IMG/VR virus record: IMGVR_UViG_3300032304_001269
Location: 10,067-74,066 of that record
Direction: 5' to 3' (one strand)
Source: a virus
Taxonomy: Duplodnaviria; Heunggongvirae; Uroviricota; Caudoviricetes
Length of the DNA stretch: 64,000 bases
Below are positions 1-49,501 of the stretch, one piece after another. Below the pieces are notes generated by a model, which saw only the letters and a list, made by a program, of their open reading frames with translations, was not told the origin of the DNA and did not search any database. How positions within the stretch are numbered: the stretch's first letter is position 1; each line of letters starts with the position of its first letter. Both the position numbers and the translations under genes were made by a program.

Positions 1-77
1 AGATTACTGAAATGTCAACTCTTGCACTGCTAATTAGTAGAGTATATACTGTTGTATCACGTTAATAAAGGAATTTT

Positions 78-665
78 ATGCTAGTACCAATGGTAGTTGA
101 ATCTACATCAAAAGGCGAACGGGCCTATGACATCTACAGCCGTTTGCTTAAAGAGCGTATTATTATGTTGAATGGACCGGTGGAAGATCACATGGCCAAT
201 GTTGTAGTTGCCCAATTGCTGTTCTTAGAGAGCGAGAATCCAGACAAAGATATAAATTTGTTTATCAATTCGCCAGGCGGTGTTATCACAGCAGGCATGG
301 CCATCTACGATACCATGCAGTTTATCAAGTGCGATGTGACCACTTATGTTATGGGACAGGCCTGCTCCATGGGCAGCTTTTTAGCACAAGCAGGTGCCAA
401 AGGCAAACGATACATGTTGCCCTATGCTAGACACATGATCCATCAGCCCAGCGGCGGTGCTCGTGGTATGCAGAGCGATATCGAAATCCAGTACAAAGAA
501 ATCACTAAGATGAAAACAATCTTAACTGAACTCTATGTCAAACACAACTCTGCAGGCAAGACATATCAAGACTTTGAACGTGATATGGATCGTGATACAT
601 TCATGAGTGCAGAAGAAGCACTGGCCTACGGTCTAGTAGATAAAATAATTGAGAAACGACCATGA
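78..665 (+). CDS. clpP: ATP-dependent Clp protease proteolytic subunit ClpP
   Basis: 195 aa. ClpP catalytic-triad context is present: GQACSMGS (Ser), MIHQPSGG (His) and DRD. An AAAGGA RBS lies upstream. Confidence 0.9.
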
Positions 666-1045
666 ACTTACAAACATTAGGTAAAATAGACAAAGGGTGG
701 GGATTCGAATTGGTGTTTGCCAACAACGACAAATACTGCGGAAAACTTTTGGTATTTGATCGTGCAGGTGCCAAAACCAGTTTGGTGTTTCACAAAGAGA
801 AATACAAGAGTTGGTTCATCAATGCTGGCAAGTTCCGAGTTACCTATATCGATGTCAGCACAGGTGAAACCAAGGAAGCTATTCTAGAAGAAGGCAAGAC
901 CGCAGACTTCGGTGCCCTTGGCCCGCATCAGATTGAAGCACTGGTTGCCAACAGTGTGATCTTTGAAGTCAGTACTGCTGACTACGTGGAAGATCGCTTT
1001 AGACTTGCGCCGGGTGACACGCAAACGAAGCAGTCAGCGCAGTAA
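662..1045 (+). CDS. hypothetical protein
   Basis: 127-aa ORF whose start overlaps the clpP stop (ATGA). No recognisable motif. Confidence 0.45.
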
Positions 1046-2210
1046 TCAAATCTTCAATCATACTATCATCGTGGAACGGAGTAGGTGCAATACGTAATCT
1101 TTCCGTGCCCACAGCCACAGTAGGGGAATTAATTGGCTGGATATAGATGTTGTGCTCATTAAGCAGATCATCACTGATGGCCTTGCATCGTTTGGCTTCC
1201 CCAATTAGGATAGGAACAATGTGTGTGGTAGTACATTCCATAGCAGGCATGCCAGCCACTGCCAATCTATGCTTTAACTTTCTAGCACGTTCTTGATGTT
1301 TATCTCTGAGCTCTTGATGATCCTTGAGATACTTGACCGCAGCCAGAGCCCCTGCACACGAAACAGGGCTCATTGATGTAGTGAATATAAAACCTGCAGC
1401 TACAGAACGGATGGCGTCGATGACCTCAGCATCGGCAGCTATATAGCCACCTTGGACTCCATAGGCTTTCCCTAATGTACCGTTGACTATGTCAACACGG
1501 GATTGTAGCCCTAGCTCTTCAACTTTCCCACCACCGTGGGGTCCATAGAGTCCTACTGCATGTACTTCATCGATGTAGGTCATAGCACCATATCGATCTG
1601 CTAGGTCGCAGATCTCTTTGATGTGTCCTACGTCGCCATCCATTGAATAAACTGATTCAAATACAATACAAGGCACGTTGCCTGTGAGTTGTATTGAAGT
1701 TAGTATGTCTTCTAGGTGATCGAGGTCGTTGTGACGGAACACTGTTTTAGGTGCTCGGCTGTGTATCATGCCAATGACTAGGCTGTTGTGGTTCTCACTG
1801 TCCGACACAAAATGTATGTTGGGTATGATTTTACTTAGAGCAATTAATGTCCATTCGTTGGCTACATAAGCAGAGCTGAACAGTAGTGCTCGTGCCTTGT
1901 TGTGTAGAGTGGCTAGCTCGTGTTCTAGAGCCACATGATAGTGGCTAGTTCCTGCAATGTTGCGGGTGCCACCTGATCCTGCACCTGTGTGATCTAGTGC
2001 TGTATGCATGGCGTCTAACACAACCTTGTGCTGGCCCATGCCTAAATAGTCGTTGCTGCACCAGTTTGTAATGCTCTTGATGTTGTAGGGCCCGTACCAC
2101 ATGGCTGAAGGAAATTTGCCCTTTTCACGGATGATGTCATTGAACACACGGTATTTTCCGTTATCTTTCAGCGTTTTAAGCAGTGTGTTAAAGGGAGTTT
2201 TGTTTATCAT
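999..2210 (-). CDS. hemA: 5-aminolevulinate synthase (PLP-dependent alpha-oxoamine synthase family, ALAS/HemA type)
   Basis: 403 aa. [12 protein letters not shown] near the N-terminus, [13 protein letters not shown], and a TLGKAYG Lys-PLP site all match ALAS. They do not fit BioF or Kbl as well. Confidence 0.8.
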
Positions 2211-2254
2211 AGTAATGTTATTTACCCTGCTAAATATTGCATTAGGGAGTAATA

Positions 2255-2677
2255 ATGGCTACGATTAACTATTGGGGTTTGTCAAAGAAGGGATCAGTAA
2301 CTGTGGCAATGACAGTTACTATCGATCAACTGATAACAGCCATAGCCACTGATGAAGGATTGGCCACAGAATACTATACTGTTAGTTCTATGAACGACTT
2401 CAGCAAAAGCAGCCTAACGTTCGGTGATAGTACTACAACACTAACACAGCTAGGACTGGTCGATGGCGGCATAGTTCTATGTACCACAAATCAAACAGGC
2501 AGCAAACAAGATCGACAACTACAGAAATTAGCCATAGCTGCTAAAACTAAGACTGTTGATGGCTACACAAGAGCAACACTAGATGCTACACAACTACCAA
2601 CCTTGTACAGCGGTAACGATGTGGTTGATAATGCCAACGTGGGTGGCTTGGTTGTTGGTCGTCCTTGGACAATATAA
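2255..2677 (+). CDS. hypothetical protein, Thr/Gly-rich, possibly virion-associated
   Basis: 140-aa ORF lying upstream of the fibre gene. Confidence 0.4.
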
Positions 2678-2695
2678 TTAAAAGAGAGAACACAT

Positions 2696-3001
2696 ATGAG
2701 ACTAGCAGACATCATGCGAGACATCGCAGACTTAATAGATCAAAAGCAAGGACAAGGTGCTGACCTAAGTCAAAACTCAACCCAACAGCGAATGACTCAT
2801 GCTGAAGTAGATGAGCCTGAATTAGACGACGAGCCAGTGATGGTTCCTGCACTGCAACAGAAGCATGAACTACTAAAGAAAGTAGCGGGTGTGCCAAGTG
2901 CATATGATGACGAAGACAACAAAGAAACTGGCGAACTAGATCGTATGCGTAAGATGGCTGGCATTGTTATTGCTGGTGATGAGATCGACGACCTAAATTA
3001 A
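2696..3001 (+). CDS. hypothetical acidic protein
   Basis: 101 aa, Asp/Glu-rich, with an AGGAGA-like RBS context. Confidence 0.4.
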   Translation: MRLADIMRDIADLIDQKQGQGADLSQNSTQQRMTHAEVDEPELDDEPVMVPALQQKHELLKKVAGVPSAYDDEDNKETGELDRMRKMAGIVIAGDEIDDLN

Positions 3002-3013
3002 CCAGGAGCGGTA

Positions 3014-5218
3014 ATGGCTATTAGAAAAATTGCAACTGGACAGATGTCCTACTCTGCTGCCACTTATGTGGGTACAGCTGGCACTATCTTTTACGATGAA
3101 CTAACTGGCCTGTTAAAGCTCAGCGATGGCGTTACTCCTGGCGGCGGCAATATAGGTATTAGTGCTAACATAATCACAGCTGAAAGCATTGTTCCAGATG
3201 TAGATAATGTTCACGGGCTCGGCACAGCGTTGCTACGATGGAGCCATATACACATTGGTGATGAAGGCATTTACTTTGACGGTGATGACTCAACCATCAG
3301 CCCTCCACAGACCGTGCCATATCGTCCGCAATCATTGGTAGGAAGTCTAATACCACAAGATGACAATGATGTTGATCTTGGTTCTCCAACCAAAAGGTTT
3401 GCCAACCTGTATCTTGGCTACCAAGGTTTATTTCTAGCAGACACAATCACAGACGCCAACATCAATATTGTGGCTACTAACGGCACACTGTTTTTAAATG
3501 GTGCTCAAAATCTACGATTAGGTGATCTAGTTATTGAGAACACCACCTTAAAAAGTTTTACTCCTGACCTAGACGTCAGCGTTGGTGAAACAGGCGACAC
3601 TGGCTTCTTCTACGTCAAACGTAAGGCGCAGTTTGACAATACCTCATTCAGCAGCATAGAAGGCATGGTGAGTATCAATGCTTCAGGTGGTGCCGAACCC
3701 GCTACTATATTCCCAGATACCCTATTGCAATTAACCGGCAGACCCAACAAGAACAGTCGTGTCACACAACGATCATACGGTAGCACAGGGGTAGTAGGTG
3801 GAGACAACAGTTATGCTGTATGGGCCAGTTATGCAGCCCGTGGCTCAGTGGCAAGCCCAGCCGCACTCAAAGCCAACGACATACTGATGCGACTCAGTGC
3901 CAACGGCTATGGAGCAACTTCATTTGGATCAGGTGGCGGTGCTAGAATAGAAGTGGTTGCCAAAGAAAACTTCACTGACTCAGCCAAAGGCACCAAGATC
4001 AACTTCTGGACTGTGCCTACAGGACAGGTTGCCAGCCAAACAGTAGCGTCAATTGACAGCACTGGTGTGGTCACCACTGGTCTAAAGTTCAGCGGTGACG
4101 ACACAGTTCAAACCACAGCAGGTATTCCTTTAACACAAAAAGGTGCAACTTCTGGTGTGGCCACTCTAGATGCGGGCGGTAAACTCACTGCCGCACAGAT
4201 TCCTGACAGCCTATCGGGTGCAGTGGTGTTTAAGGGTGTGTGGAACGCTAACACTAACACGCCTACACTCAGCGACTCACTACCTGTAGGACTACAACCT
4301 GGTTGGGAATACATTGTAGAAGTAGGCGGAACAAGAGATATCGGCGATGGCAGTAAAGTATTTGTCGCAGGCGACTTTGTTATATACGATGGCACACATT
4401 GGAAACAGGTTCCAAGCGGCAACTTGTTCACCAGCCTCACAGGTGGCGGTGGCATCACCGTTAGTCAATCAACTGGTGCTATCACATTAGGTAGTACAGC
4501 CACTCCGTTGTCCAATGTCAGCACTATTGTTAGTCGTGACAGTTCAGGCAACTTTGCCGCTAATATTATCACAGCCAACCTAACTGGTAATGTCACTGGC
4601 ACAGTGTCAGGCAATGCTGGCACAGTCACAAATGGTGTTTATACCACAGACACTGCCACAGTTACAAATACTATGTTGGCTGGCTCAATTGCCAATAACA
4701 AGTTATCTAACAGCACCGTCACAGTAAATGGAACTGCAATAGCATTAGGTGCTTCAGGTACAGTCACAGCGGCAGCAGGTACACTGACTGGAAATACTCT
4801 GGCATCAGGAGTAACAGCAAGTAGCCTAACATCAGTAGGCACATTGGGCAGTCTAGCAGTTACTAACGGCATAACAGCAACTAACTATACTGGACTGGTC
4901 ACTCACTCTATTAGAAATGCAGGAGCAGTGGGTGGAACTACATTAACACTCAATGTGACCACAGACGATATTGTTAGATGCACATTTACAACTGATTTTA
5001 CTGTGGCATTTAGTAACATTGTTGCTGGTAGAGTAATTACACTCATAGCTACCAATACCTCTGCTGGTGATAGTGACGTTATTACTTCCGGCGTAGCCGC
5101 GTTGAATACCACTAGTGTTGGAACGTTTACAGTTACACAACAGACCACAGCAGTAATCACCTACTACAGTCTTGACGGTGACACCGCCAACATCTATGCT
5201 TCGGCAGTTTACGCTTGA
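3014..5218 (+). CDS. tail fibre-like protein (Gly/Thr/Ser/Val-rich, repetitive)
   Basis: 734 aa. Low-complexity TGxVTG and NxT repeats typical of phage fibres. The antisense ORFs in this interval are composition artefacts. Confidence 0.55.
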   Translation: MAIRKIATGQMSYSAATYVGTAGTIFYDELTGLLKLSDGVTPGGGNIGISANIITAESIVPDVDNVHGLGTALLRWSHIHIGDEGIYFDGDDSTISPPQTVPYRPQSLVGSLIPQDDNDVDLGSPTKRFANLYLGYQGLFLADTITDANINIVATNGTLFLNGAQNLRLGDLVIENTTLKSFTPDLDVSVGETGDTGFFYVKRKAQFDNTSFSSIEGMVSINASGGAEPATIFPDTLLQLTGRPNKNSRVTQRSYGSTGVVGGDNSYAVWASYAARGSVASPAALKANDILMRLSANGYGATSFGSGGGARIEVVAKENFTDSAKGTKINFWTVPTGQVASQTVASIDSTGVVTTGLKFSGDDTVQTTAGIPLTQKGATSGVATLDAGGKLTAAQIPDSLSGAVVFKGVWNANTNTPTLSDSLPVGLQPGWEYIVEVGGTRDIGDGSKVFVAGDFVIYDGTHWKQVPSGNLFTSLTGGGGITVSQSTGAITLGSTATPLSNVSTIVSRDSSGNFAANIITANLTGNVTGTVSGNAGTVTNGVYTTDTATVTNTMLAGSIANNKLSNSTVTVNGTAIALGASGTVTAAAGTLTGNTLASGVTASSLTSVGTLGSLAVTNGITATNYTGLVTHSIRNAGAVGGTTLTLNVTTDDIVRCTFTTDFTVAFSNIVAGRVITLIATNTSAGDSDVITSGVAALNTTSVGTFTVTQQTTAVITYYSLDGDTANIYASAVYA

Positions 5219-5496
5219 TAGGGTTTCTAATGTATAGAAAATATATCAACATCGTAGAAGCAGCCAATAAAGGCTGTCCGATAGCAACCTATGACATAGA
5301 CGTTAATCTAAAGAATCGTCAAAAAGCCATAGATGAATATCACTACGGTCCAGCCAATCCCGAAGCACCAGAATCATATTGGAAGGATGCAGCTGATCGT
5401 TGGAGCAATCGTAGCGAGCGATGCCTGGACTACTTTATACAGTCTTGGCGGTATGGATTCCAGCGGCGACACTTTTACAGCTACCCTACAGGATAA
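5215..5496 (+). CDS. hypothetical protein (start uncertain)
   Basis: The track ORF starts at TTG; the first ATG is at 5230. An alternative overlapping frame at 5333..5584 cannot be excluded. Confidence 0.3.
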   Translation: MIGFLMYRKYINIVEAANKGCPIATYDIDVNLKNRQKAIDEYHYGPANPEAPESYWKDAADRWSNRSERCLDYFIQSWRYGFQRRHFYSYPTG

Positions 5497-5594
5497 AGGA
5501 GCAGGTACAATCTATCGTGTTACCTTTATGCGTAGTGATTCTGGCGGAGATGGCTTCAATATCATAGCAGAGAGATTATTATAAGGAAACAACA

Positions 5595-5744
5595 ATGGAA
5601 GACAATGACACCTCATATCAAAGATTAAAACCCAAATGTTCATGCTGGTGCACCGGACACTGCGGATCTAGCTGTATGACTGACGGCTGCGATTGCAATG
5701 AATGCCAGTGTGATGATTGTTTAGATAAAAAGGAAAACAAATGA
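5595..5744 (+). CDS. small Cys-rich peptide (49 aa, 11 Cys), a candidate RiPP precursor or metallothionein-like peptide
   Basis: Not in the ORF track because it is under 60 aa. An AAGGAAAC RBS lies 5 nt upstream of the ATG. Sequence: MEDNDTSYQRLKPKCSCWCTGHCGSSCMTDGCDCNECQCDDCLDKKENK. Its stop overlaps the next ATG (ATGA). Confidence 0.45.
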   Translation: MEDNDTSYQRLKPKCSCWCTGHCGSSCMTDGCDCNECQCDDCLDKKENK

Positions 5745-6376
5745 GCTTTTTAGTAGCAAACCTTCCCCCCATACACGGTTTTGTTCGTAGAGAATTTCTC
5801 TACGATTTTAAAAGTGGTCATGATGAGTACGAGCCCTGCATATGGGTTTCAATCAAGAGCCTACGCAGTCAAGCATTTAGAATAGAATCCTACTTGCCAC
5901 GCTACGGTGCTCTTTATGACAAGCTGCCATTGCATGCCTATGTGAGCAGAGACACTGACCTAGAACCAGAACAGTTCCTACCCTTGGACACACTACAGAT
6001 CTGGGATTGTTTTAGCTATGATATGGCAGTGATACAGAAAGCATTTTTACGCAATCTCAGCTGTAAATTCTATGCCAAGAATCGAGAACTGTATCAGGGC
6101 AACTATCTATTCACTGTAGACAATGCCGCACCCGACATGAACATCATAGATACCACCTATTCAGAATGGCCCGAAGATCACAAGAGCTTTAACTTCATTG
6201 AACTAGACAACGGACAGTATGCTGCACAGCCCAACAATCGCTGCTTGTTCTTTGATGCTGCCAGCAATCCCAAGGAAATGCTGTTTCCAGATTTCAAAGT
6301 CTGCACTAAAAAATACGTGGTAGAACAGAACCCTAAGTGGCGTCTAGGTGACAGCGACACTGTCACCTATGAGTGA
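5741..6376 (+). CDS. hypothetical protein, translationally coupled to the Cys-rich peptide
   Basis: 211 aa with no recognisable motif. ATGA overlap with the upstream peptide ORF. Confidence 0.5.
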   Translation: MSFLVANLPPIHGFVRREFLYDFKSGHDEYEPCIWVSIKSLRSQAFRIESYLPRYGALYDKLPLHAYVSRDTDLEPEQFLPLDTLQIWDCFSYDMAVIQKAFLRNLSCKFYAKNRELYQGNYLFTVDNAAPDMNIIDTTYSEWPEDHKSFNFIELDNGQYAAQPNNRCLFFDAASNPKEMLFPDFKVCTKKYVVEQNPKWRLGDSDTVTYE

Positions 6377-6379
6377 TTT

Positions 6380-7426
6380 ATGCATTGTCCAAGACTAGAC
6401 CACTTTGCAAAAATTTTACCCAACGATAATATAAAAAATCAAACTGTGGTAATGAATTGTTGTGTTATGACTAATGCACCTCTATTCGACAGTTACGACG
6501 AAATGATGAGCAGTCAATGGTTATCAACCACTAAAAAATTATTGAAATATGGTCGATGGCCTAACGAATGTGTTAGATGTAAAGAACAAGAAGAGCTAGG
6601 CTTAAAAAGTGATAGATTGCAATGGATCGATTATCATAAAGATGCTCTCGTAGACCACGGTTCTGATTATCTAACGGTATCCATGATGGTAGATAATATT
6701 TGTAACACAGCCTGCCAATTTTGCGATCCTTATATCAGCTCAAAAATTGCTTCACTTCAAAAATTTCCATTAAAAATTCGACAGATTGGTCCTTACGAAG
6801 AAAAACTACCTGTACACAGAATCACTCAAATAGACCTAGAAGGAGGAGAACCTTCTAACAGTAAAAATGTTAAACAACTGTTAACCAATTTACCGCAACG
6901 AGTAAACACTGTAAAAATTTACACAAATGCAAGATCTTTTTTATACGAACTTGTACCTGTTGCAGAAAGAGGTATTAAAGTTCAAATCAGCATATCGTTA
7001 GACGGAGTCGGGCCAGTACAGGAATATGTTAGATGGCCCACCCAATGGAGTGAATTTTGTGAAACTATTGGAAAATACAAAGACCTGCAGGTTAGATTCC
7101 CGGATACAGTTGTTTTGTCTTTTAAAACCACAATCTGTGCTTTAAATCTCTTTGATCTTCCAAATATTATTGATTTTGCTGAAAAACAAAATATTAGTCA
7201 TTCTGTGTCTCAACTCGCATACCCCCGGGTATTACAAATTTCTGCAACAAATAGTTATACAGCAACTGCCAAGCAACGATTGATAAAAAGTCAGTATGAA
7301 TTGTGCCAACAATTCGCTCTGGGAACAGCCACTCAAAAAAAAGAAAATCAGCAAGAAATTGACAAATTCATCGATCAACAAGACACGCTACGTAAAATTT
7401 CAATCAAAGATTATATCGTTAACTGA
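6380..7426 (+). CDS. radical SAM enzyme
   Basis: 348 aa. CNTACQFC is a CxxxCxxC [4Fe-4S]/SAM cluster motif, and a downstream IDLEGGEPS (GGE) motif is also present. No C-terminal Cys-rich SPASM-like region. Confidence 0.65.
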   Translation: MHCPRLDHFAKILPNDNIKNQTVVMNCCVMTNAPLFDSYDEMMSSQWLSTTKKLLKYGRWPNECVRCKEQEELGLKSDRLQWIDYHKDALVDHGSDYLTVSMMVDNICNTACQFCDPYISSKIASLQKFPLKIRQIGPYEEKLPVHRITQIDLEGGEPSNSKNVKQLLTNLPQRVNTVKIYTNARSFLYELVPVAERGIKVQISISLDGVGPVQEYVRWPTQWSEFCETIGKYKDLQVRFPDTVVLSFKTTICALNLFDLPNIIDFAEKQNISHSVSQLAYPRVLQISATNSYTATAKQRLIKSQYELCQQFALGTATQKKENQQEIDKFIDQQDTLRKISIKDYIVN

Positions 7427-7462
7427 TGTTTTAATTAATAAATATGATTATTAGGAACCAAC

Positions 7463-7909
7463 ATGAGAAAACTACTACTATTATTATTGGTGCTGCCGTT
7501 GGTAGCATTTGCACAAAAAACACCAAAAGGCGTTACTTATGATGCTCAGATACTTAGAGTAACGGATGGCGACACAGTTGTTATTGCCGCACCCTTTCTA
7601 CCTGCACCCCTTAAACCAGAACTTGCTGTTAGAGTCTACGGAGTCGATACTCCGGAAAAAGGACACAGAGCACAATGTCCCAGTGAAGCACAGAGAGGCG
7701 AAGCTGCTTCCGCATTCACTAAAAATGCAATTGCTACAGCAGCATCTACAGGCGGCAAGTTTCAAGCTACTCTGTATGGGTGGGACAAGTTTGGCGGTCG
7801 AGTATTGGGTGATATATTAGTCAACGGACAGAGTCTTAGAGCTGCTCTGATTGCCAATGGATTTGCTCGCGAGTATTACGGAGAAGCCAAACAGAGTTGG
7901 TGCCAGTAA
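7463..7909 (+). CDS. secreted staphylococcal-nuclease (SNase/thermonuclease)-like nuclease
   Basis: Signal peptide MRKLLLLLLVLPLVAFA. SNase motifs present: TDGDTVV, RVYGVDTPEK and DKFGGRVLGD. Confidence 0.75.
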   Translation: MRKLLLLLLVLPLVAFAQKTPKGVTYDAQILRVTDGDTVVIAAPFLPAPLKPELAVRVYGVDTPEKGHRAQCPSEAQRGEAASAFTKNAIATAASTGGKFQATLYGWDKFGGRVLGDILVNGQSLRAALIANGFAREYYGEAKQSWCQ

Positions 7910-7919
7910 TAAATACAAG

Positions 7920-8792
7920 ATGCGAATAGAATCTTACCAATTGTTTTCACAGTTACTTGAAGGCTATCTCAACGAAGCCAGCACCAGTCTCAATTTGATC
8001 CTAGACAATCCTGGTGGCAAGCAGGTGGTCAAACATCTTCACACAGACATGGGTCTTGCACATGATCAGGATTATCGACAGGTAGAAAAGATATCGTGGA
8101 GTGACCTCAAAGACACTAGAAGAGGTGCTTGGGTTATAATCAAAGGTACCACGGGCACAGGAGCTATCCGTGCTACAGCCAGCGGTACTTACCAAGCCAC
8201 TGCCAGCTCAGGCGGTGACGTTGAAAATGCCACAGACAGTCGCGGTGGCAACATCATAGACTTCTTGAAATCTAAAATAGGCAAACTACAGAAATTCTAT
8301 GTAGGAAACAATACTTCAACCGTGCGTGACAAACAAAAGAAACGTGCAGATCAACAAGCAGGCACCGGCACCTCGATCGTCAGCGTAGACAGCCTAACTA
8401 AAAAATTCAAGCCACTGTGGGTCAAAGCTATCACTGCTGCTATCGCAGACGTCAAAGGACATATCGCTAATCAGATCAAGAACGATGCCTTTGATAAAGC
8501 TGCCAAAAAATTAGAACATGTGAAACGACTGCAATCTGCTATTGAATCGTTGGAATCAGATTCCGATACACCCGGATCAGTCAAAGCTGCTATCAATCTT
8601 GCTGTATTAATGGCAGCTAGTCATCACTATCCAGAACAGACTGGCGCTATCAGTCGAGGTGGCTATAATAGCGGGTATAATGCACAACGTTCAGAAGGTG
8701 GTAGTCAACTGCTGAAAGATATCGCAAGCGGCGATCAGAAAAAACTCAGCACGGTGCTGACATTCTTCAAAAGGAGTTTGATCTCAGGATGA
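7920..8792 (+). CDS. hypothetical protein
   Basis: First in-frame ATG of track ORF 7851..8792; the track start is TTG and overlaps the nuclease gene. Confidence 0.5.
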   Translation: MRIESYQLFSQLLEGYLNEASTSLNLILDNPGGKQVVKHLHTDMGLAHDQDYRQVEKISWSDLKDTRRGAWVIIKGTTGTGAIRATASGTYQATASSGGDVENATDSRGGNIIDFLKSKIGKLQKFYVGNNTSTVRDKQKKRADQQAGTGTSIVSVDSLTKKFKPLWVKAITAAIADVKGHIANQIKNDAFDKAAKKLEHVKRLQSAIESLESDSDTPGSVKAAINLAVLMAASHHYPEQTGAISRGGYNSGYNAQRSEGGSQLLKDIASGDQKKLSTVLTFFKRSLISG

Positions 8793-9910
8793 AACTCAAT
8801 CAAATAGTTCTCGAAGCCAATGTAGCGGCCAAACTCAAAGATCCCAAGATGGTCAAGATGTTGAGTATAGCCATGCGCCATGACAGCAGCTTGCCCAAAG
8901 ATCGTATAGCTAAACTAGGGCCAAAGCCTTCAGATGAAGAAATAGTTCAACTATGGAGCGATCTATTAGATGGTAGTCTCAGCAGCACAGACTACGGTGA
9001 CATCAGTCAAGACGGCAAGTTTGACGAATGGTTGACTCGCATGTACATCAACGGTGTTGCTGACTATGAAGATATTAACGGTGAAGGCGGAGATGCGTTG
9101 GGTGCTTGGAAGGCTCTTAGCATACGCGGCAAGTTAGCAGAAAAAGATCAAGACTTCAACAAGTTTAAAAATCTGCGTCAGATTCAACAGATTACTCAAA
9201 GCCGTGATTATCGTGATGAGCTGAGAAGAATCAAAGACGCGGAAGTTGTTGAAAAACACAAACGTGAAAAGAAAGAAACTACGCTCATAGACAATGAACG
9301 TTTCCTGATCACCCTACCCTATAACTACGGTGCTTGTTATAACTTCAACAATGCACATGGCTATAACGCAAGTTTCTGCACAGGATCAAGTTCAGGGCAG
9401 CGTTGGTTTGAAAGATATGCTCCAGAAGGTCCAATCATCTCTATCTTCGATAAGCAAAATCAAGAAGATGAAAATGGCAAATGGCAAATGCATGCTCCAA
9501 CAGGACAGATGAACAACGGTAATCAAAGTCTAAGCTATAGCCGAGGCGATCAAAAGTTTGCTGAATTATTTCCCGGACTAATGAAAGAGATCATTGCTGC
9601 TGTAAAATCCAATGCCGAAGAAATCAAAACCAACTCCGTGGACATTGTTCGTGGGGGATATGATGTTAATGCAGTTGTCGCTGAAATTAAATCTAAATTA
9701 CCTGCTTCATATGCTTCCGAAAAAGCAAAGCCGGAAGAACCAGAAGTAGATGCCAACGACGGTGCTGGAGTCTACACAGTTACACAGATAGCCTCAGGCA
9801 GGACAGCAAGGATAGAAGGCGAAAGTCGTGCTGATGTTTTACAAAAATTAACAACACGGTATCCCGATAGTACAGAAGCAGACTACACTATCGAGAAAGT
9901 ACAGGAATAA
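8789..9910 (+). CDS. hypothetical protein
   Basis: 373 aa, ATGA-coupled to the upstream gene. Confidence 0.5.
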   Translation: MKLNQIVLEANVAAKLKDPKMVKMLSIAMRHDSSLPKDRIAKLGPKPSDEEIVQLWSDLLDGSLSSTDYGDISQDGKFDEWLTRMYINGVADYEDINGEGGDALGAWKALSIRGKLAEKDQDFNKFKNLRQIQQITQSRDYRDELRRIKDAEVVEKHKREKKETTLIDNERFLITLPYNYGACYNFNNAHGYNASFCTGSSSGQRWFERYAPEGPIISIFDKQNQEDENGKWQMHAPTGQMNNGNQSLSYSRGDQKFAELFPGLMKEIIAAVKSNAEEIKTNSVDIVRGGYDVNAVVAEIKSKLPASYASEKAKPEEPEVDANDGAGVYTVTQIASGRTARIEGESRADVLQKLTTRYPDSTEADYTIEKVQE

Positions 9911-10026
9911 GAACACCCTACCTTAGGAACGTTAGCGTTACTTCAGGGTTGCCCGGCTGCTGGGCAGAGCGTTATGGGAGTCGTGCCCCGGAATGGCGTT
10001 CTAAGTGAGCATTTTTTTCAATTAAA

Positions 10027-10674
10027 ATGAAACCTACAATCGCACTATTTTTGCATGATCCAAGATGCTCAGTACAATGTGGTAATGGTATAATAAAGGC
10101 ACTGGGTCAACACTATAACTTCAAAATCTTTGGATTAAACAAAGTCGAAGACGTATTTTTTGATGACGTGGACATAGTGGCTTTTCCTGGGGGTGAAGGT
10201 GACAGCGAATCCTGGCATAGATTGCTTAAGGTCAACAAACCACAGATATTAAATTTTATTAGCCGCGGCGGTCATTATCTTGGAATTTGCATGGGGGCAT
10301 ACTGGGCAGGAAGTTATTACTTTGATATCTTAGATGAAGTGGATGCTGTTCAATATATTGCCCAACCAAATACTGACACACGTCGCCCACATGCTAAGGC
10401 AATTGATGTGGTATGGAATGGACATCCTGAAAGGATGTTTTTTTATGATGGCTGCGCCTTAGTTGGTAATAACAATAAATTTGAAACCATAGCTACCTAT
10501 GCCAATGGCGATGCAATGGCGATTATACAAAATAGAATAGGACTCATAGGATGCCACCCAGAAAGTGAAAAGTTTTGGTATGACGCTTATTATAGTTGGA
10601 TGAAACCTCATTATCATAACGGACTTCATCATAAACTTTTACTTGACTTTGTAGACAAATTATTTTATAAATAA
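10027..10674 (+). CDS. class I glutamine-amidotransferase-like (BPL_N-like) protein
   Basis: 215 aa. A GICMGAY nucleophile-elbow-like motif and a FPGGEGD motif are present. Confidence 0.45.
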
Positions 10675-10693
10675 ATTACAGGAGGACACAACC

Positions 10694-10852
10694 ATGAAAC
10701 AGAAAAGGCTATTGGCTAAACTGTACAGGGCTTGCGTCGACCATGATACAGAAACGGTTTCCGAACTGCGTAAAAAAGAGTTCGCTAAGATACTGAAACG
10801 CAAGGCCGAAGGCAAACCATTTACAACAAAATGGGTGCTAGTACAGGTTTAA
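10694..10852 (+). CDS. small basic hypothetical protein (52 aa)
   Basis: Strong AGGAGGA RBS 6 nt upstream. Not in the track because it is under 60 aa. Confidence 0.3.
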
Positions 10853-10953
10853 CACACACTAGGGCTACTTCGGTAGCTCTTTCAATTTGCTCAAAATAAT
10901 CCGATCATCGGGAAAATAAACATAAATATCTACCTAAGGCAATTGAGGCACAT

Positions 10954-12630
10954 ATGGATAGATATAAAGATTTAGAACTATTAGTAAAACAATTCAGGCG
11001 AGAATTACCCAGTGACGCAAAATACACTACAAGACTCGAAGAAGAATTAGAATTAATTAGAGATCAAAATTTTTCAAAACACTTCTTACGTGTTAGAGAA
11101 ATATTAGATCTCACAACAGACATACCACATATCACGAGAGGTTCAGCAGGATCTAGTTTGGTGTGCTGGCTTATGGGAATCAGTGATCTTGATCCTGTGG
11201 CAGAAAACATTCCCATTGCACGTTTTATGAATCCCAAACGTGACGACTTACCTGACATTGATTTAGATTTCCCGCACTGGCAACAGGCCACAGTGATGAA
11301 TCGCATATTCAAACGCTGGCCTGGACAAAGTGCTAGAGTTTCTAATTATGTCATGTACAAAGAAAAAAGCGCCAAGAGAGAAGCTGCCAAGAGACTAGGC
11401 GCTAAAGGTACACTCAAGCGTGGATTTGAATTCAGCCAGGTGTTACCGCAAGAAGAGATAGCGGAGGCCGAACGAGTTACTGCCAAGCTCATGGGCAAGA
11501 AACGCTGTATTTCAAAACACTGTGGTGGTATATTGATCTTTGATCGTGCTGTGCCTAAAAGCTTGATCAACGGTGACAATCAGATCCTATTAGACAAGTA
11601 TGAAACTGAAGATCTTGAACACTTCAAGATAGACATCTTGGCCAATCGTGGACTTAGCCAACTGTGGGAAATAGATCAGCGCCCACTAACAGACTATCCG
11701 GAACTGGATGACGCAACCAGTGAACTGCTAGCTAGAGGTGATGTGTTGGGAGTTACCCAAGGCGAATCGCCTGCTATGAAACGCTTGTTTAGAGCACTAA
11801 AAGTCAAGAGCAAAAGCGACTGTACTCTAGCCACAGCACTGATTCGTCCGGTGGCCACACAGGGTCGACGAAAGGCCAGCGCCTTTCAAGACTGGAGTGC
11901 AGACACTATACAACAGGACACAGTGGTGTTTGAGGATGATGCCATTACCATGATTGCTGACATACTAGAATGTGACATGTACACCGCCGACATGTGGCGC
12001 AGAGCGTTTGCCAAACGTAATGAAGAAAAAATCTACGAATTCATGCAGTTGATTGGAGACCATCCCAAGCGTGATCGTGTGTTGGCTTCTTTGAGAGAAC
12101 TCAGTCATTTTGGTCTTTGTCGTGCTCATGCTACTAACTTGGGTAGATTGATATGGGCGTTGGCCTATCACAAGGCACATAATCCTGAGAAGTTCTGGAA
12201 GGCCTGTCTAAAACACTGTGAAGGCAGTTACAGCAAATGGGTATACTGGCAAGAAGCCAAACTGGCTGGTGCTGTTCCAGCGCCACTGGAAGGCGGTGAG
12301 TGTGCTGAGTTGGCCCGCACCGGTCGATGGAGTAGCGGTAGTTTTATTCCGGCATGTACTGAGATTCGACGTCCTGGCGAAGTTGAATTTCTTGGACTAG
12401 TGGCAAACTATCGTGTATTCAAAAGCGGTCCTAAAGACTATATAACCTTTGCCACACTAGGCACTGGTAATGGTCGTTATCTAGATGTTATGTTGCCACA
12501 TGCTATTAGTTTCGCAGATCAACCAATCTTATGGGGCAAGGGTCGATTAGACTATACAAACAGCTCAGAATGTGTTAAAGTATATAAGAGTAAGAAATTA
12601 CATCTCAAAGACATAGAGCATATCACATAA
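10954..12630 (+). CDS. DnaE-family (Pol III alpha-like) polymerase catalytic core, truncated (no PHP domain)
   Basis: ITRGSAGSSLVCWLMGISDLDP ... ARFMNPKRDDLPDIDLDF closely parallels the DnaE palm motif GRGSAAGSLV...FERFLNPERVSMPDFDVDF. Only 558 aa. Confidence 0.7.
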   Translation: MDRYKDLELLVKQFRRELPSDAKYTTRLEEELELIRDQNFSKHFLRVREILDLTTDIPHITRGSAGSSLVCWLMGISDLDPVAENIPIARFMNPKRDDLPDIDLDFPHWQQATVMNRIFKRWPGQSARVSNYVMYKEKSAKREAAKRLGAKGTLKRGFEFSQVLPQEEIAEAERVTAKLMGKKRCISKHCGGILIFDRAVPKSLINGDNQILLDKYETEDLEHFKIDILANRGLSQLWEIDQRPLTDYPELDDATSELLARGDVLGVTQGESPAMKRLFRALKVKSKSDCTLATALIRPVATQGRRKASAFQDWSADTIQQDTVVFEDDAITMIADILECDMYTADMWRRAFAKRNEEKIYEFMQLIGDHPKRDRVLASLRELSHFGLCRAHATNLGRLIWALAYHKAHNPEKFWKACLKHCEGSYSKWVYWQEAKLAGAVPAPLEGGECAELARTGRWSSGSFIPACTEIRRPGEVEFLGLVANYRVFKSGPKDYITFATLGTGNGRYLDVMLPHAISFADQPILWGKGRLDYTNSSECVKVYKSKKLHLKDIEHIT

Positions 12631-12944
12631 TGGCTAGACTACACATATATCCGCACAACGAACCCAAAGAGGATCTACACATCATAGCAGATCCTGCCGC
12701 ACTTAGAGCCTTGGGCAATGCACTTATCAAAGCAGCACAGACGCCAATGGGTTTTGAAAGAGTCAAACTGCACACCAGTGACGGTCACGAATATACGGCC
12801 ATGATAGTGGCAGACGTCAGTGAAGATGAATGGCAGACCGTACCTCCAGCATATATTAAATCGAAAATTCCTGCCATACAAACTTTAGAAAATTATAATA
12901 GTATACGCAAAGAACTACAAGAAGCTCGTCGAGAATCAGTGTAA
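12630..12944 (+). CDS. hypothetical protein
   Basis: 104 aa, ATAATG junction with the upstream gene. Confidence 0.4.
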   Translation: MARLHIYPHNEPKEDLHIIADPAALRALGNALIKAAQTPMGFERVKLHTSDGHEYTAMIVADVSEDEWQTVPPAYIKSKIPAIQTLENYNSIRKELQEARRESV

Positions 12945-12988
12945 CACAACTGCAATCTCTGTAATACAATACTACGATAAATACTGCT

Positions 12989-13873
12989 ATGCAAAAAACT
13001 TATCGTAGTATTTTTGTGAGTGACGTCCACTTGGGTACAAAAGACTGCAAGGCGGAACAACTCAATAACTTCCTTAAACACAATACCTGCGATACTCTTT
13101 ATCTCGTAGGCGATATCATCGATGCATGGAAGATACAACAAAATAAATGGCGATGGAAACAGAGCCATACAAACGTAGTACGTCGTGTACTGGGTCACGC
13201 CAAACGCGGAACCCGCGTAATATTCATAGCAGGTAATCACGATGAATTCCTAAGACCAATGATACCATATGGTTTTTCATTCGGCCTTGTAGAGATTCAC
13301 AATCAAATAGAACACATTGGCGCCGATGGCAAACACTATCTTGTGGTACACGGAGACTTATTTGACGGCATTACTCGTCTTGCACCATGGATAGCATTCC
13401 TAGGAGATAAAGCATATGACATCGTTCTTACACTCAATAATAAATTTAATTGGATTCGTCGCCGTATGGGTTTTGGGTACTTTAGCCTTAGCAAGTATCT
13501 TAAGTACAAGGTTAAAAAAGCAGTAGACTTTGTGTTCAAGTTTGAAGAGAACTTGGCCAACTACTGTAAGAAGCGTGGGTTTGATGGGGTCATATGTGGA
13601 CACATACATCACGCAGAGATCAAAGAGATCAACGGTGTCGCATATATGAATGACGGTGACTGGGTTGAATCATGCACAGCCTTAGTAGAACACTGGGACG
13701 GTCAATGGGAAATAATTACATGGACACAGGAGAAAGATAATGTGGATACTGATAATACTGGCAGTTCACGTAAACGATCCAAAAGACATACCGGGTCGAG
13801 TGACTCTAGAATTTCCGACTCAACAAGATTGCGAACAAGCAAGAACGACAATGACCAGTTGGTTGAAGTTTGA
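12989..13873 (+). CDS. LpxH-like metallophosphoesterase (UDP-2,3-diacylglucosamine hydrolase family)
   Basis: SDVHLGT ... LYLVGDIIDAW ... GNHDE ... GHIHH are metallophosphoesterase motifs. The N-terminus resembles LpxH (ADLHL...GDLFEAWIG). Confidence 0.65.
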   Translation: MQKTYRSIFVSDVHLGTKDCKAEQLNNFLKHNTCDTLYLVGDIIDAWKIQQNKWRWKQSHTNVVRRVLGHAKRGTRVIFIAGNHDEFLRPMIPYGFSFGLVEIHNQIEHIGADGKHYLVVHGDLFDGITRLAPWIAFLGDKAYDIVLTLNNKFNWIRRRMGFGYFSLSKYLKYKVKKAVDFVFKFEENLANYCKKRGFDGVICGHIHHAEIKEINGVAYMNDGDWVESCTALVEHWDGQWEIITWTQEKDNVDTDNTGSSRKRSKRHTGSSDSRISDSTRLRTSKNDNDQLVEV

Positions 13874-13894
13874 TTCATTTAAAATAACAGCACA

Positions 13895-14908
13895 ATGCAA
13901 AAAACAATCTTAATAGTCACAGACAACTTACCGGAGCAGATCAATGGTGTGGTTACGACCTACAAAAATATTGCGGCGTGTGCGGTTCGGGACAACTATC
14001 GTGTTGTATATCTTGATCCCGGGAGGTTCCGCCATGTTGATTGCCCTGGCTACAACGAAGTCAAGATTACCCTTACCAGGAAACGCACAGTGGGCAAGAT
14101 ACTTGAGGAGATCAATCCGGATCATATCCATATCGCCACCGAAGGTCCTTTGGGTTTGTGTGCTAGACAATATCTTGACCAACACGGTTATCGCTACAAT
14201 ACTGCTTATCATACTAAGTTTCCAGAAGGAATTAGAAAGCTTTTTGGTATACCTGAAGCTGTTACTTGGCCTCTAGTACGTTGGTTTCACAAACACAGTG
14301 GTAAGGTGCTGACCACAACTGACAGCATGGTGCAAGAATTACAAGCTCATGGATTCGATGGCGAAGTAGTTTCCTGGACACGCGGTGTTGATCGTGAGGT
14401 GTTTCATTCTGCACACAGAGTAGAGACTGTGAGTAGATATCTGCTGTGCGTGAGCCGAGTCAGCAAGGAAAAAAATCTCGAAGCGTTCTTTAAAATGGAT
14501 TACCCTGGATACCTCAAAGTCATGGTAGGTGACGGTCCGATGTTAGAGACCTACAAGAAACAGTATCCCGATGTACATTTTACCGGATACAAAACAGGAA
14601 TAGATCTAGCCAGATATTATGCCAACGCTGAAGCGTTTGTGTTCCCTAGCCAATGGGAAACATTCGGACTCGTGATGATTGAATCTATGGCCTGCGGTAC
14701 ACCAGTTGCTGCTTTTCCTGTACAAGGACCTCTAGATGTTGTTGACGAAGGCATTACAGGCTGTATGAATGAAGACTTGGCTCAAGCAGTGACCGATGCA
14801 TTATTGCTTGATAGACAATGTGTTTTAGAAGGCAGTCAACGGTGGACCTGGGAACGAGCTTGGGCTATCTTTAGAGATAACTTGATAGATAAATCGGATA
14901 CAAGATAA
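13895..14908 (+). CDS. glycosyltransferase, GT4 (group 1) family
   Basis: C-terminal EAFVFPSQWETFGLVMIESMACGTPV matches the GT4 E-x7-E region. Confidence 0.75.
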   Translation: MQKTILIVTDNLPEQINGVVTTYKNIAACAVRDNYRVVYLDPGRFRHVDCPGYNEVKITLTRKRTVGKILEEINPDHIHIATEGPLGLCARQYLDQHGYRYNTAYHTKFPEGIRKLFGIPEAVTWPLVRWFHKHSGKVLTTTDSMVQELQAHGFDGEVVSWTRGVDREVFHSAHRVETVSRYLLCVSRVSKEKNLEAFFKMDYPGYLKVMVGDGPMLETYKKQYPDVHFTGYKTGIDLARYYANAEAFVFPSQWETFGLVMIESMACGTPVAAFPVQGPLDVVDEGITGCMNEDLAQAVTDALLLDRQCVLEGSQRWTWERAWAIFRDNLIDKSDTR

Positions 14909-14949
14909 GGTATCACTGGAATCCGTAACCAGTATCTATTTTAGTAATA

Positions 14950-15903
14950 TTATAAAGAGATTTTCTCATGATCGTCCTCCTTGGTCTTCCATAAGCTATA
15001 ACCAACTCCACCTGCCAACAATCCAAAAGTTAAACCTAAGGTAAGCAGGGCAGGCAATTTAATACCGATCATCATTAACACAATCTTGACACCAATCAAA
15101 ACTAATATTAATGCTAAGGCATATTTGAGATAGTGGAATCTATGTATCATGGCAGCTAGAGCAAAATATAAGGCTCGTAGTCCTAAGATAGCAAAGATGT
15201 TTGATGTATAGACTATAAACGGGTCTTGCGTAATGGCTAGTATGGCAGGTACACTATCCACAGCAAATATTATGTCTGCGAAGTTAATCAATACTAGAGC
15301 CACGAACAACGGAGTAAACCATCTTACGCCATTCTCCTTGAACCAGAAGTCATGACCTCTGTATTCTTCGCTGATATTCATTTTACCTTGCATCCATTTG
15401 TACAATGAGTTATTCTCAAAATCCGGTCCATCTTCATCTTTGGTCCATAACATCTTGACCCCAGTGACGATTAAGAAGGCTCCGAAGAACCAGAGTACCC
15501 ATTGCCATTCTGATACTACTGCGGCACCGAATCCGATGAACACAGCTCGTAGCACAAGAGCCATTAAGATACCCCAGACTAAAACACGATATTGATAGAT
15601 TCTAGGTATTCCCAAGAATGCAAAAATCAGTGCGAAAACAAACACATTATCTATGCTTAATGATTTCTCAACCAAGAATCCTGTGTAGTAGAGTAAAGCA
15701 TCTTCTGCTCCACGCATCCACCAGACACCTAGGCCAAACAGCAGGGCCACAGCAATATAGAAAGCACTTAACCACAGGCTTTCCTTTATGCCAATTTCAT
15801 GATCTGTTTTATTGAGAACGCCCAGGTCGAATGCCATGAGCGCAATAACGATTACGAAAAACGTAATCCAAGGCAGTACAGCCGCCGATAACAACATTTC
15901 CAT
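14950..15903 (-). CDS. terC: TerC-family integral membrane protein
   Basis: 317 aa, multi-pass membrane protein. Contains the TerC-type SIDNVFVFALIF motif. Confidence 0.75.
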   Translation of the reverse strand: MEMLLSAAVLPWITFFVIVIALMAFDLGVLNKTDHEIGIKESLWLSAFYIAVALLFGLGVWWMRGAEDALLYYTGFLVEKSLSIDNVFVFALIFAFLGIPRIYQYRVLVWGILMALVLRAVFIGFGAAVVSEWQWVLWFFGAFLIVTGVKMLWTKDEDGPDFENNSLYKWMQGKMNISEEYRGHDFWFKENGVRWFTPLFVALVLINFADIIFAVDSVPAILAITQDPFIVYTSNIFAILGLRALYFALAAMIHRFHYLKYALALILVLIGVKIVLMMIGIKLPALLTLGLTFGLLAGGVGYSLWKTKEDDHEKISL

Positions 15904-16009
15904 ATCTATCTCCTAGTTATGGTCTTGCCGCTTTGTCTACAAACCGGGTATTTTCTACCGTGTTGACGATCTGTAAATCCTTTGCAGGACGGCTACTCCC
16001 CGAGAGTAT

Positions 16010-16591: not shown

Positions 16592-16640
16592 ACCATATTA
16601 TAGCATTATTTTGAACAGTTGTCAACCGGATAAGTAAACA

Positions 16641-17342: not shown

Positions 17343-17343
17343 G

Positions 17344-17372
17344 AAAAAACCCCCTTCCGGGGGTTTCTCTTT
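17344..17372. terminator. bidirectional rho-independent terminator
   Basis: AAAAAACCCCCTTCCGGGGGTTTCTCTTTT lies between convergent genes. Confidence 0.6.
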
Positions 17373-17401
17373 TCATAGTATATTGCTCTATGAGCGTAAT
17401 A

Positions 17402-17674: not shown

Positions 17675-17763
17675 TGTAATTCTCCTGTGTGTAATGTCTG
17701 TGTCTAGCAGCTACTTCTGTTTCGCTGTTAGTTTATTATATAGCCTTAATTTAAAAAAACAAG

Positions 17764-18339: not shown

Positions 18340-18620
18340 AAATGCCTGTGATTCTGATCAAACTGTCTTTGTAATTGTTCTAGTTGAGCTATACTATCGA
18401 TGCTGTGATTTGACAGATATACTTTGAATCGGTTTTCATAAGTATCGCTTTGAAATGTATTCCGAAGCTTTTCGGTCATACAGAAGATTGAAGTTAGTAA
18501 TGATTTCATAGATGTAAGTGTATAATGTATTTATCACTGCGTGTGTGCGGTGCACAATAACCGCGGGTGACAGCAGTGAGGAAATCCTGTAAAATAGATT
18601 ATATTTGAAGTAAATACACA

Positions 18621-47986: not shown

Positions 47987-48286
47987 ATGTCAACAGATAC
48001 CGCAGTAGAAGAATCAGTAGTTGTAGCACTTAAGCCACCTGGTTTATGGAAGGTGATTTTTCTCAATGATGATTCCACTCCGATGGAATTGGTTATAGAA
48101 CTGCTCACAGGAATTTTCAAGCACACAGTATCATCCGCTAAAGAAGTCACCCTGGAAATACATGAAACTGGCAGCGGCGTGGCCGGTGTTTACAGTTTTG
48201 AAATAGCCGAACAAAAAGGCATGGAAGCCACTGCCGTGGCTAGACAGAATGGTTCACCTTTACGTGTACAAGTGGACCCGGAATGA
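47987..48286 (+). CDS. clpS: Clp protease adaptor ClpS
   Basis: WKVIFLNDDSTPMELVIELL and the HETGSGVAGVYSFEIAEQK ClpS core. Confidence 0.8.
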   Translation: MSTDTAVEESVVVALKPPGLWKVIFLNDDSTPMELVIELLTGIFKHTVSSAKEVTLEIHETGSGVAGVYSFEIAEQKGMEATAVARQNGSPLRVQVDPE

Positions 48287-48828
48287 GTCTACGAGAAATT
48301 ACCAAAGACCTCCATCATGAGGCAGAAACCACAACATTTGCCAAGATGTTGCTCAGTGGCAAAATTGAAAAACAAGACTACAGAAACTATCTGTACAATC
48401 TACTTGCAGTATACGATCCAATTGAATGGTACTGCAAGCGGCAGGGCTTTCTTGACACTATGCCGGATCTTCCAAGACTAAAGTCTATATATGCAGACTT
48501 CCAAGAATTAGACGATGGTACCTATTGTTATCTCACTCCTGCTACATTAGAATATCAAGCATACTTGCATAGACTAGGCAACGATCCAGAACGTAAAACA
48601 CAAATTAAGGCTCATCTATACTGCCGTCACATGGGCGACTTATTCGGCGGCCAAATTATTAAAAAACAAGTAGCACATATATCAAGTGGAAAGTTCTACG
48701 ACTTTGAAAATGGCGATGCTATGAAAGGTGCTATCCGTGCAACGCTAACAGATGATCTAGGCGACGAAGCTCGAGTGGCCTTTGAGTTTGCTATTAAAAT
48801 GATGCGAGACTTATATCTTGGAGAGTAA
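48283..48828 (+). CDS. heme oxygenase
   Basis: AHLYCRHMGDLFGGQIIKK matches the HO signature AHAYTRYLGDLSGGQ. N-terminal TKDLHHEAE is the proximal His region. Confidence 0.75.
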   Translation: MSLREITKDLHHEAETTTFAKMLLSGKIEKQDYRNYLYNLLAVYDPIEWYCKRQGFLDTMPDLPRLKSIYADFQELDDGTYCYLTPATLEYQAYLHRLGNDPERKTQIKAHLYCRHMGDLFGGQIIKKQVAHISSGKFYDFENGDAMKGAIRATLTDDLGDEARVAFEFAIKMMRDLYLGE

Positions 48829-49501
48829 CGTTTGGGACACCCTGATAGAAATACAATCTCTATTTGAGAAGTCGTTCGACCGCACAGGTACTGAAGTGTT
48901 CGAGCCGGGGATGGATCGGTTTAATCAACCGGGGTGGGTTAATAGAGTTTGGACCAGTAACGATTATCGTAGAGCTCATATCGATGTAGTCGATGCCCGA
49001 TCCACAAAGGGACTCTGGATGATGCATTGCTGTATTTTCCCACATATCCATAACCCGGCACCTATTTACGGATTTGATGTTATTGCAGGTAAGAATAAGA
49101 TCACTGGTTGTTTTCATGATTTCAGTCCAGCTGGCGACATTGAACATTCTCTCATCGATTGGTTTGCTGCCGAAACCCAAAAATTGCAATGGAACAAAAC
49201 ACGGAAACTACCTGAGTGGGCAGAGCGTATTTTTACAGGATCTATGATTGCTGCAGGAAATGTCAGCGATCCGGGAGAGCTAGAACAGATTATGAATCTA
49301 GTAAAACTAACCACAGAAGTATATCTCAAGCATGTGGGTGATACTAATCGTACAGCTATGAATACTACTGACAATCAAAATTACTACGCACAAAATCAGA
49401 AGCAAAACCCGCATACACCTAAGGTAATGGTTAGTTTAGGACTTTCAGAGGACGATGTACAGCATTTTATACAAGAATGCCTGTTCCCAGAAATACGCTA
49501 A
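48818..49501 (+). CDS. ferredoxin-dependent bilin reductase (PcyA/PebS/PcyX family)
   Basis: Size and layout fit this family: an ordered Asp/His-containing core (RRAHIDVVDARSTKGLWMMHCCIFPH), and it lies immediately downstream of heme oxygenase. The start is a TTG that overlaps the HO stop; the next in-frame ATG is at 48911. Confidence 0.6.
   Translation: MESNVWDTLIEIQSLFEKSFDRTGTEVFEPGMDRFNQPGWVNRVWTSNDYRRAHIDVVDARSTKGLWMMHCCIFPHIHNPAPIYGFDVIAGKNKITGCFHDFSPAGDIEHSLIDWFAAETQKLQWNKTRKLPEWAERIFTGSMIAAGNVSDPGELEQIMNLVKLTTEVYLKHVGDTNRTAMNTTDNQNYYAQNQKQNPHTPKVMVSLGLSEDDVQHFIQECLFPEIR

Follow-up and report, generated by a model that had tools for sequence, protein, structure and literature searches.

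5-Aminolevulinate (ALA) is the committed precursor of all tetrapyrroles. Here we describe a gene for a 5-aminolevulinate synthase (ALAS) in a stretch of 64,000 nt of phage DNA (Caudoviricetes; positions 10,067 to 74,066 of the IMG/VR record IMGVR_UViG_3300032304_001269), which was analysed as a whole and is called the window in the following. The gene, located at 999..2210 on the minus strand, very likely codes for a functional viral enzyme (vAlaS) and would be an auxiliary metabolic gene by which a freshwater jumbo phage supplies ALA during infection. Genes of this kind have been described before. In large freshwater phages, ALAS, ho1 and pcyX-like genes were annotated by Chen et al. 2020 (bioRxiv 10.1101/2020.02.13.942896), and the gene received its name valaS from Wegner et al. 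2024 (Nat Commun 15:8783, PMC11480375), who reported it from marine and freshwater phage contigs, where it is part of a three-gene cassette, part of a "broken cassette" or solo. According to the latter study, viral and bacterial AlaS form separate clusters with about 55% identity, and the viral enzymes often lack His342/Cys400, the residues of heme feedback. Activity was demonstrated by complementing an Escherichia coli ALA auxotroph with the vAlaS of phage CB_2 (PMC11480375); the complementation that the original prediction for this locus had suggested is therefore already published for the family. The same prediction had implied a novelty beyond the phage cassettes for the last two steps. 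This does not hold, as ALAS together with hemO and pcyA/X is contained in both publications. The phage ALAS family and its activity are thus known since 2020 and 2024, and the window adds one more member of the clade. A literature search yielded no later follow-up to Wegner et al. 2024.

Eight phage contigs from Lake Grosse Fuchskuhle (GROS21-1 uncultivated viral genomes, UViGs; 179–374 kb, 38–42% GC; PMC11480375, Supplementary Data 1 and 5) each carry HemO, a bilin reductase and AlaS in a non-cassette arrangement, and share with the window the clade, the genome type and this gene set. An ALAS protein identical to that of the window is encoded on the ENA contig KRAE22-1_SAMEA4981856_METAG-scaffold_505, which follows the same sample-naming scheme as the Fuchskuhle contigs. 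The window differs from these in sample and contig, and its ALAS is identical to none of the listed sequences. With UViG_0060, the sole Fuchskuhle vAlaS compared past its N-terminus, it has 82.1% identity over the 285 recovered aa. The others were compared over the N-terminal 109 aa, where those grouping with the window reach 75–84%, and UViG_0005, which groups with CB_2, 71%. Judged by these identities, the window therefore belongs to an already published clade.

The vAlaS of CB_2 (Crystal Bog; Chen et al. 2020), which we rebuilt from the published alignment (PMC11480375) and which has the expected Lys at position 250, is 60.8% identical to the window ALAS over 398 aa. Like the latter it has the catalytic lysine and the active-site residues but lacks the feedback His, and its genome also holds heme oxygenase (HO) and ferredoxin-dependent bilin reductase (FDBR) elsewhere, as a broken cassette. 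However, the CB_2 reductase, the only freshwater phage FDBR assayed so far, proved to be a true PcyA (PMC11480375), which forms phycocyanobilin and is without the PcyX-specific Asp, whereas the window FDBR has this residue (Asp56) and matches PcyX. The hemO-pcyX phage pair goes back to Ledermann et al. 2016. The marine, pelagiphage-type hemO-pcyX-valaS cassette comprises the same three enzyme families as the window, including a PcyX-type reductase, but its genes are contiguous and lie on contigs of 32–38% GC. The window, in contrast, comes from a jumbo phage with a GC content of about 42%, and its valaS is part of a broken cassette, 46 kb from hemO-pcyX and on the opposite strand. The only cellular case reported to have the trio together is the hemO-pcyA-alaS island of Bradyrhizobium sp. 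ORS278 (PMC11480375). This island differs from the window in being bacterial, in its PcyA reductase and in a linked phytochrome gene (bphP); the approximately 60 window ORFs (open reading frames) scanned revealed neither a phytochrome nor a bilin-binding gene.

In the ORF listing the gene forms one intact frame of 403 codons with an ATG start, exactly where a minus-strand ALAS had been predicted, and its translation holds all three motifs quoted then, GTLGKAYG among them. The NCBIfam equivalog model for ALAS, TIGR01821 (curated cutoff 338.55 bits), covers residues 6–396 with 568 bits (E=1e-170), whereas none of the sister models reaches its own cutoff (BioF 302/426, Kbl 294/460, serine palmitoyltransferase (SPT) 222/640, CqsA 159/428 bits). 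Pfam returns the generic Aminotran_1_2 fold only. Among solved structures the top five matches are all ALAS: the best is the Rhodobacter capsulatus enzyme (2bwn, E=1e-132), followed by a second bacterial-length ALAS and then by the human and yeast mitochondrial enzymes, and the first structure of another kind comes at 7e-55. The identity to the R. capsulatus ALAS is 55% near full length, compared with 29–31% to BioF and Kbl. By these sequence comparisons, the product is a true ALAS and not BioF, Kbl or SPT. The gene stands alone on the minus strand, in surroundings transcribed from the plus strand. At its 3' end it shares 47 bp with a convergent ORF of 127 aa (ORF127), and 44 bp separate its start from the divergent next gene (2255..2677).

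For the active site, the window ALAS was aligned with 2bwn, 59 distinct viral and 80 cellular relatives, Salmonella Kbl and E. coli BioF. All 13 positions mapped from 2BWN as contacts of pyridoxal 5'-phosphate (PLP), glycine or succinyl-CoA are kept in the window as well as in 59 out of 59 viral relatives. In the window these are Arg21, Asn53, Thr82, Asn84, His141, Lys155, Ser189, Asp214, His217, Thr245, Lys248 (the Schiff base), Thr364 and Arg373; the equivalents in the cellular R. capsulatus AlaS/HemA, identical throughout, are in the same order Arg21, Asn54, Thr83, Asn85, His142, Lys156, Ser189, Asp214, His217, Thr245, Lys248, Thr365 and Arg374. Thus the Schiff-base lysine and the PLP-anchoring H141, D214 and H217 are present in every viral sequence. 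We take Asn54 and Arg374 of R. capsulatus to bind the glycine carboxylate, and Arg21 and Thr83, with Asn85, to recognise the carboxylate of succinyl-CoA. The succinyl-CoA-specific positions Thr83/Asn85 are occupied by V/F in Kbl and by S/H in BioF; the window has T82/N84. Catalytic activity is accordingly predicted for the window ALAS.

A different picture emerges for heme feedback. The position of the feedback His (His342 in R. capsulatus) is taken by Arg341 in the window and by R, K or L, never by His, in 59 of 59 viral sequences, so that the combination of His and Cys ligands (His342/Cys400, R. capsulatus numbering) typical of a feedback-regulated AlaS is not found in the window protein. 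Its C-terminus (residues 396–403, DNA 999–1025) reads FACHPAQV, in which Cys398-His399-Pro400 is out of register by one residue relative to the heme-ligand Cys of Caulobacter and Rhodobacter. Of 176 clade members only 50 have a C-terminal Cys (C398 in the window), and the ends SHPEQV or FNKTY occur in others; a conserved regulatory role of this site is improbable. Because of Arg341 and the infrequent C-terminal Cys, the window ALAS is probably insensitive to heme feedback.

In a neighbour-joining tree (400 trimmed columns, 200 bootstraps) built from ALAS, Kbl and BioF, the split between ALAS and Kbl plus BioF was recovered in 200 of 200 bootstraps. An SPT identity is excluded by the hidden Markov model scores and the ranking of PDB structures; the phylogenetic check proposed with the original prediction thus came out in favour of ALAS. 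The window sequence falls into a viral clade (196/200 bootstraps), to whose members it is 76–97% identical. The nearest cellular sequences, with 50–58% identity, are almost all alphaproteobacterial (Caulobacterales, Hyphomicrobiales, Rhodobacterales and others). Over 19 ungapped codon pairs with phage relatives, dN/dS ranges from 0.037 to 0.086 (median 0.057) at dS of up to about 1.2, which indicates strong, long-standing purifying selection. The GC content of the gene (46.4%; 44.3% at third codon positions) lies within about 1.3 standard deviations of the other long ORFs of the window (42.5±2.8% and 38.0±5.2%, respectively). Therefore, both its selection and its composition characterise valaS as a long-resident phage gene, neither recently captured nor a relic.

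That the gene is phage-encoded is also borne out by its surroundings. The window has 42% GC. Of its 96 ORFs, about 90% share one strand, and a family match is lacking for most. Besides tail and minor-tail proteins, the matches of phage type comprise virion structural, pre-neck-appendage/tailspike-like and endolysin-like proteins, a PD-(D/E)XK exonuclease and a class I ribonucleotide reductase (RNR) (all PHROG), as well as a PolIII-alpha-like polymerase, whose best GenBank match is in a 484-kb uncultured huge phage. No match to GenBank phages was obtained by megablast with window positions 1–20000. With the ALAS as query, tblastn against the same phages found only Kbl/BioF-like matches of at most 35% identity, in contaminating or transduced bacterial DNA, and no ALAS in the cultured phages of this set. 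In metagenomes there are more than 120 ALAS protein clusters with 84–96% identity, some on contigs of 200–353 kb, and at least 248 viral contigs in IMG/VR carry a close relative of the gene. The window is a member of a clade of freshwater jumbo phages that is abundant in lake metagenomes and has genomes of roughly 320–370 kb. The order ClpP, ORF127 and, on the opposite strand, ALAS was found in every large contig inspected. Among 80 IMG/VR ALAS loci, many of which stop at contig ends, ORF127 is present in 60 and ClpP in 39, and the 47-bp overlap of ORF127 with ALAS is kept in the relatives L001–L006.

From these features a working model can be proposed. As a PLP-dependent homodimer, vAlaS would condense glycine and succinyl-CoA to ALA, and would thereby keep or raise the ALA supply for the host enzymes from HemB to HemH during infection. 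With Arg in place of the feedback His, this supply would probably be free of heme inhibition and the flux would stay open in the virocell. The activity of this particular protein, the loss of feedback and a physiological benefit to the phage are what we infer here. The features of the window are compiled in Table 1.

Table 1. Annotated genes of the window, with coordinates counted from its first nucleotide
Feature	Position	Strand	Remarks
ClpP	78-665	+	ALAS neighbour, conserved
ORF127 (127 aa)	662-1045	+	converges on ALAS; no Pfam or NCBIfam match
valaS, 5-aminolevulinate synthase	999..2210	-	403 aa; PLP-dependent alpha-oxoamine synthase; Schiff-base Lys248
Tail and minor-tail proteins	3014..5218		PHROG
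TerC membrane protein	14950-15903	-	
Fatty-acid desaturase	16641-17342		
Class I RNR	28483-32367		
AhpC/TSA peroxiredoxin	36904-37443		
NAD-dependent sugar epimerase	38632-39600		
DnaK	45468-47432	+	
Hsp20	47489-47932	+	
ClpS	47987-48286	+	
vhemO, heme oxygenase	48283..48828	+	181 aa; PF01126, 82 bits; proximal His11; GDLFGGQ distal-helix motif
PcyX-type FDBR	48818..49501	+	227 aa; TTG start; PF05996, 51.6 bits
D-Ala-D-Ala endopeptidase-like protein	54123-54944		sub-cutoff

The heme oxygenase and the bilin reductase that had been predicted 46 kb downstream of valaS are indeed there, each recognised by its Pfam family (Table 1). The start of hemO lies 46,073 bp from that of the ALAS gene, on the opposite strand, and hemO and the FDBR gene overlap by 11 nt. 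The best solved relative of the HO is Synechocystis HO-1 (1we1, E=2.3e-13), with which its ligand His and the GDLFGGQ motif are aligned. Compared with solved structures, the FDBR matches PcyX (5owg) with 4e-65 and PcyA with 2e-11, and it stays below the PcyA equivalog cutoff (86 versus 206 bits). Its Asp56, His70 and Asp87 correspond to Glu76, His88 and Asp105 of PcyA. In the literature PcyX is marked by an Asp in place of this Glu76, a residue linked to the formation of phycoerythrobilin rather than phycocyanobilin. On this evidence the window FDBR is classified as PcyX-type, and phycoerythrobilin, from a four-electron reduction of biliverdin IXalpha, is its predicted product. The translationally coupled hemO-pcyX pair can turn heme into biliverdin and further into, as predicted, phycoerythrobilin.

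In 80 out of 80 related IMG/VR loci the HO gene adjoins the FDBR gene, and in none of 80 IMG/VR ALAS loci is either of the two within 3 kb of ALAS. Two near-complete genomes from IMG/VR also have ALAS and FDBR on opposite strands, about 42 kb apart in 3300042402_002641 (280 kb) and about 45 kb apart, across the contig ends, in 3300044640_001495 (353 kb). Together with the 46 kb in the window, this makes the split layout a stable feature of the clade. The original prediction had also asked for relatives with all three genes: these two genomes and the eight Fuchskuhle contigs provide them. The pair forms the end of a DnaK-Hsp20-ClpS-HemO-PcyX block (45468–49501, plus strand) that is conserved across the clade: among 80 IMG/VR FDBR loci HO is present in 80, ClpS in 77, Hsp20 in 76 and DnaK in 72.

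Searches with Pfam, PHROGs and NCBIfam in the approximately 60 window ORFs revealed no further tetrapyrrole genes and no bilin-binding partner (hemB-H, cobS, bchE, globin- or phycobiliprotein-like). A radical SAM protein at 6380–7426 was considered as HemN, BchE or NirJ and rejected, being instead a sub-threshold match of the "twitch-domain" type. The product of 5741–6376 (plus strand, 211 aa) matches phrog_3704, labelled "ferredoxin", at 2e-83 and is 48–52% identical to a family in T4-like cyanophages, pelagiphages and Flavobacterium phages. The ferredoxin label finds no support: there is no Pfam or NCBIfam match, and the names given to the family differ between phage records, cyanophage records included, from PurM to ferredoxin to hypothetical. 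Annotation drift is the likely origin of the label, and this protein should not be taken for an electron donor of the FDBR.

The ALA flux may serve the general supply of heme and cofactors or feed the bilin branch through HO and PcyX; as a hypothesis, a link between the three genes is favoured by their co-occurrence. Pressed further, ALAS, HO and PcyX would be one dedicated phage pathway from glycine and succinyl-CoA to a bilin, phycoerythrobilin. The trio is found in every near-complete genome of the clade that was examined (the eight published contigs and the two from IMG/VR), it forms a contiguous cassette in marine phages, and Bradyrhizobium ORS278, the only cellular parallel, makes a phytochrome chromophore with it (PMC11480375). 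However, in the window 46 kb and opposite strands separate ALAS from hemO-pcyX, the 80 ALAS loci are without HO or FDBR within 3 kb, and phage contigs that carry valaS alone are numerous (PMC11480375). Moreover, the route from ALA to heme takes seven host enzymes, porphyrin accumulation in E. coli was not relieved when phage HO and FDBR were co-expressed (PMC11480375), and a bilin-binding partner is missing among the ORFs scanned. We therefore regard a dedicated pathway as possible but doubtful; a flux directed by ALAS specifically towards bilin, as the original prediction suggested, might be put forward as a hypothesis.

Another reading would take the sequence for a fragment of a bacterial chromosome or a mis-assembly, with the ALAS as an ordinary host gene. 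Many genes of the window are indeed cell-like (among them DnaK, ClpP, ClpS, tmRNA, RNR and TerC), and one relative, with an ALAS 69–70% identical to that of the window, was deposited in a metagenome-assembled genome (MAG) as "MAG: Crocinitomicaceae bacterium" (L167; JBDNIA010000195.1, 18.7 kb). We rejected this relative as a cellular ALAS, because it is surrounded by three other ORFs of the window phage, the homologs of 2255–2677, 2696–3001 and 35091–35501; L167 is therefore a misbinned fragment of a related phage. The presence of such a fragment in a Bacteroidota MAG could be contamination or a co-abundance hint about the host. Against a chromosomal origin stand, furthermore, the one-strand gene organisation with mostly unmatched ORFs, the tail, virion, endolysin and exonuclease matches, the phrog_3704 protein common to T4-like cyanophages and pelagiphages, the occurrence of the locus in hundreds of IMG/VR UViGs and the curation of the published Fuchskuhle contigs as phage genomes (PMC11480375). 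A bacterial origin of the sequence is thus very improbable. The assumption of another alpha-oxoamine synthase (BioF, Kbl or SPT), finally, is effectively refuted by the protein sequence, for although fold and PLP lysine are common to these families and their models match at 1e-53 to 1e-90, they fall far short of their curated cutoffs while that of TIGR01821 is exceeded by 230 bits, and the identities, the retained Thr83/Asn85 equivalents and the 200/200 split all side with ALAS.

The window also contains a permuted two-piece tmRNA at 35714–36115 (plus strand; ARAGORN 35725–36115, tag ANADTFDFSAMSFTGNTVRGAANDSRFALAA), which is matched by the Rfam families beta_tmRNA (RF01850, 144 bits at a gathering score of 84) and tmRNA_permuted (RF04321, 130 bits). 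Together with ClpP, ClpS, DnaK and Hsp20 it makes up a proteostasis set. The beta type of the tmRNA weakly suggests a betaproteobacterial host, that is, an organism with the C5 pathway. A bypass in C5 hosts has already been hypothesised for another phage and for non-alphaproteobacterial hosts (PMC11480375). Extended to the window, this would mean a betaproteobacterial C5 host without an ALAS of its own, in which vAlaS acts as a foreign, heme-insensitive Shemin bypass instead of supplementing a host enzyme, the strictly conserved DnaK-Hsp20-ClpS-HemO-PcyX block marks a hitherto unrecognised link of phage proteostasis with bilin formation and a PcyX forms phycoerythrobilin in freshwater. We consider this scenario as a whole unlikely; if it were true, only the host assignment and the linkage within the gene block would be new.

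Two adjacent ORFs at 55468–57105 (minus strand; 274 and 262 aa) are clearly paralogous: each starts with MDPxTLFALANGAVxxVKxGCxLYKDIK and has a C-terminal hydrophobic segment. The product of 51307–53412 (plus strand, 701 aa) resembles a signal peptide at its N-terminus, has a long middle part of low complexity that is rich in Thr and Val, finds no match in PHROGs and may be a surface or outer-membrane protein.

Some observations have to be held against our view that the gene encodes a functional vAlaS which supplies ALA during infection. The window ALAS is only 61% identical to the validated enzyme of CB_2, and a scan for promoters and terminators around the gene gave no signal above the shuffled background. 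The C398/H399 pair lies close to the site of the second heme ligand, therefore the loss of heme regulation is not certain. The benefit to the phage, be it the topping up of a C4 host or a C5 bypass in a non-alphaproteobacterial one, is speculative. Nevertheless, a functional vAlaS is the reading that we clearly prefer. The window opens no new question and its value is modest: it is a better-resolved example of the family, with a PcyX-type reductase and a possible clue to the host. As for the family itself, a phage-encoded ALAS means that viruses can control not only the breakdown of heme but also the step with which tetrapyrrole synthesis begins.

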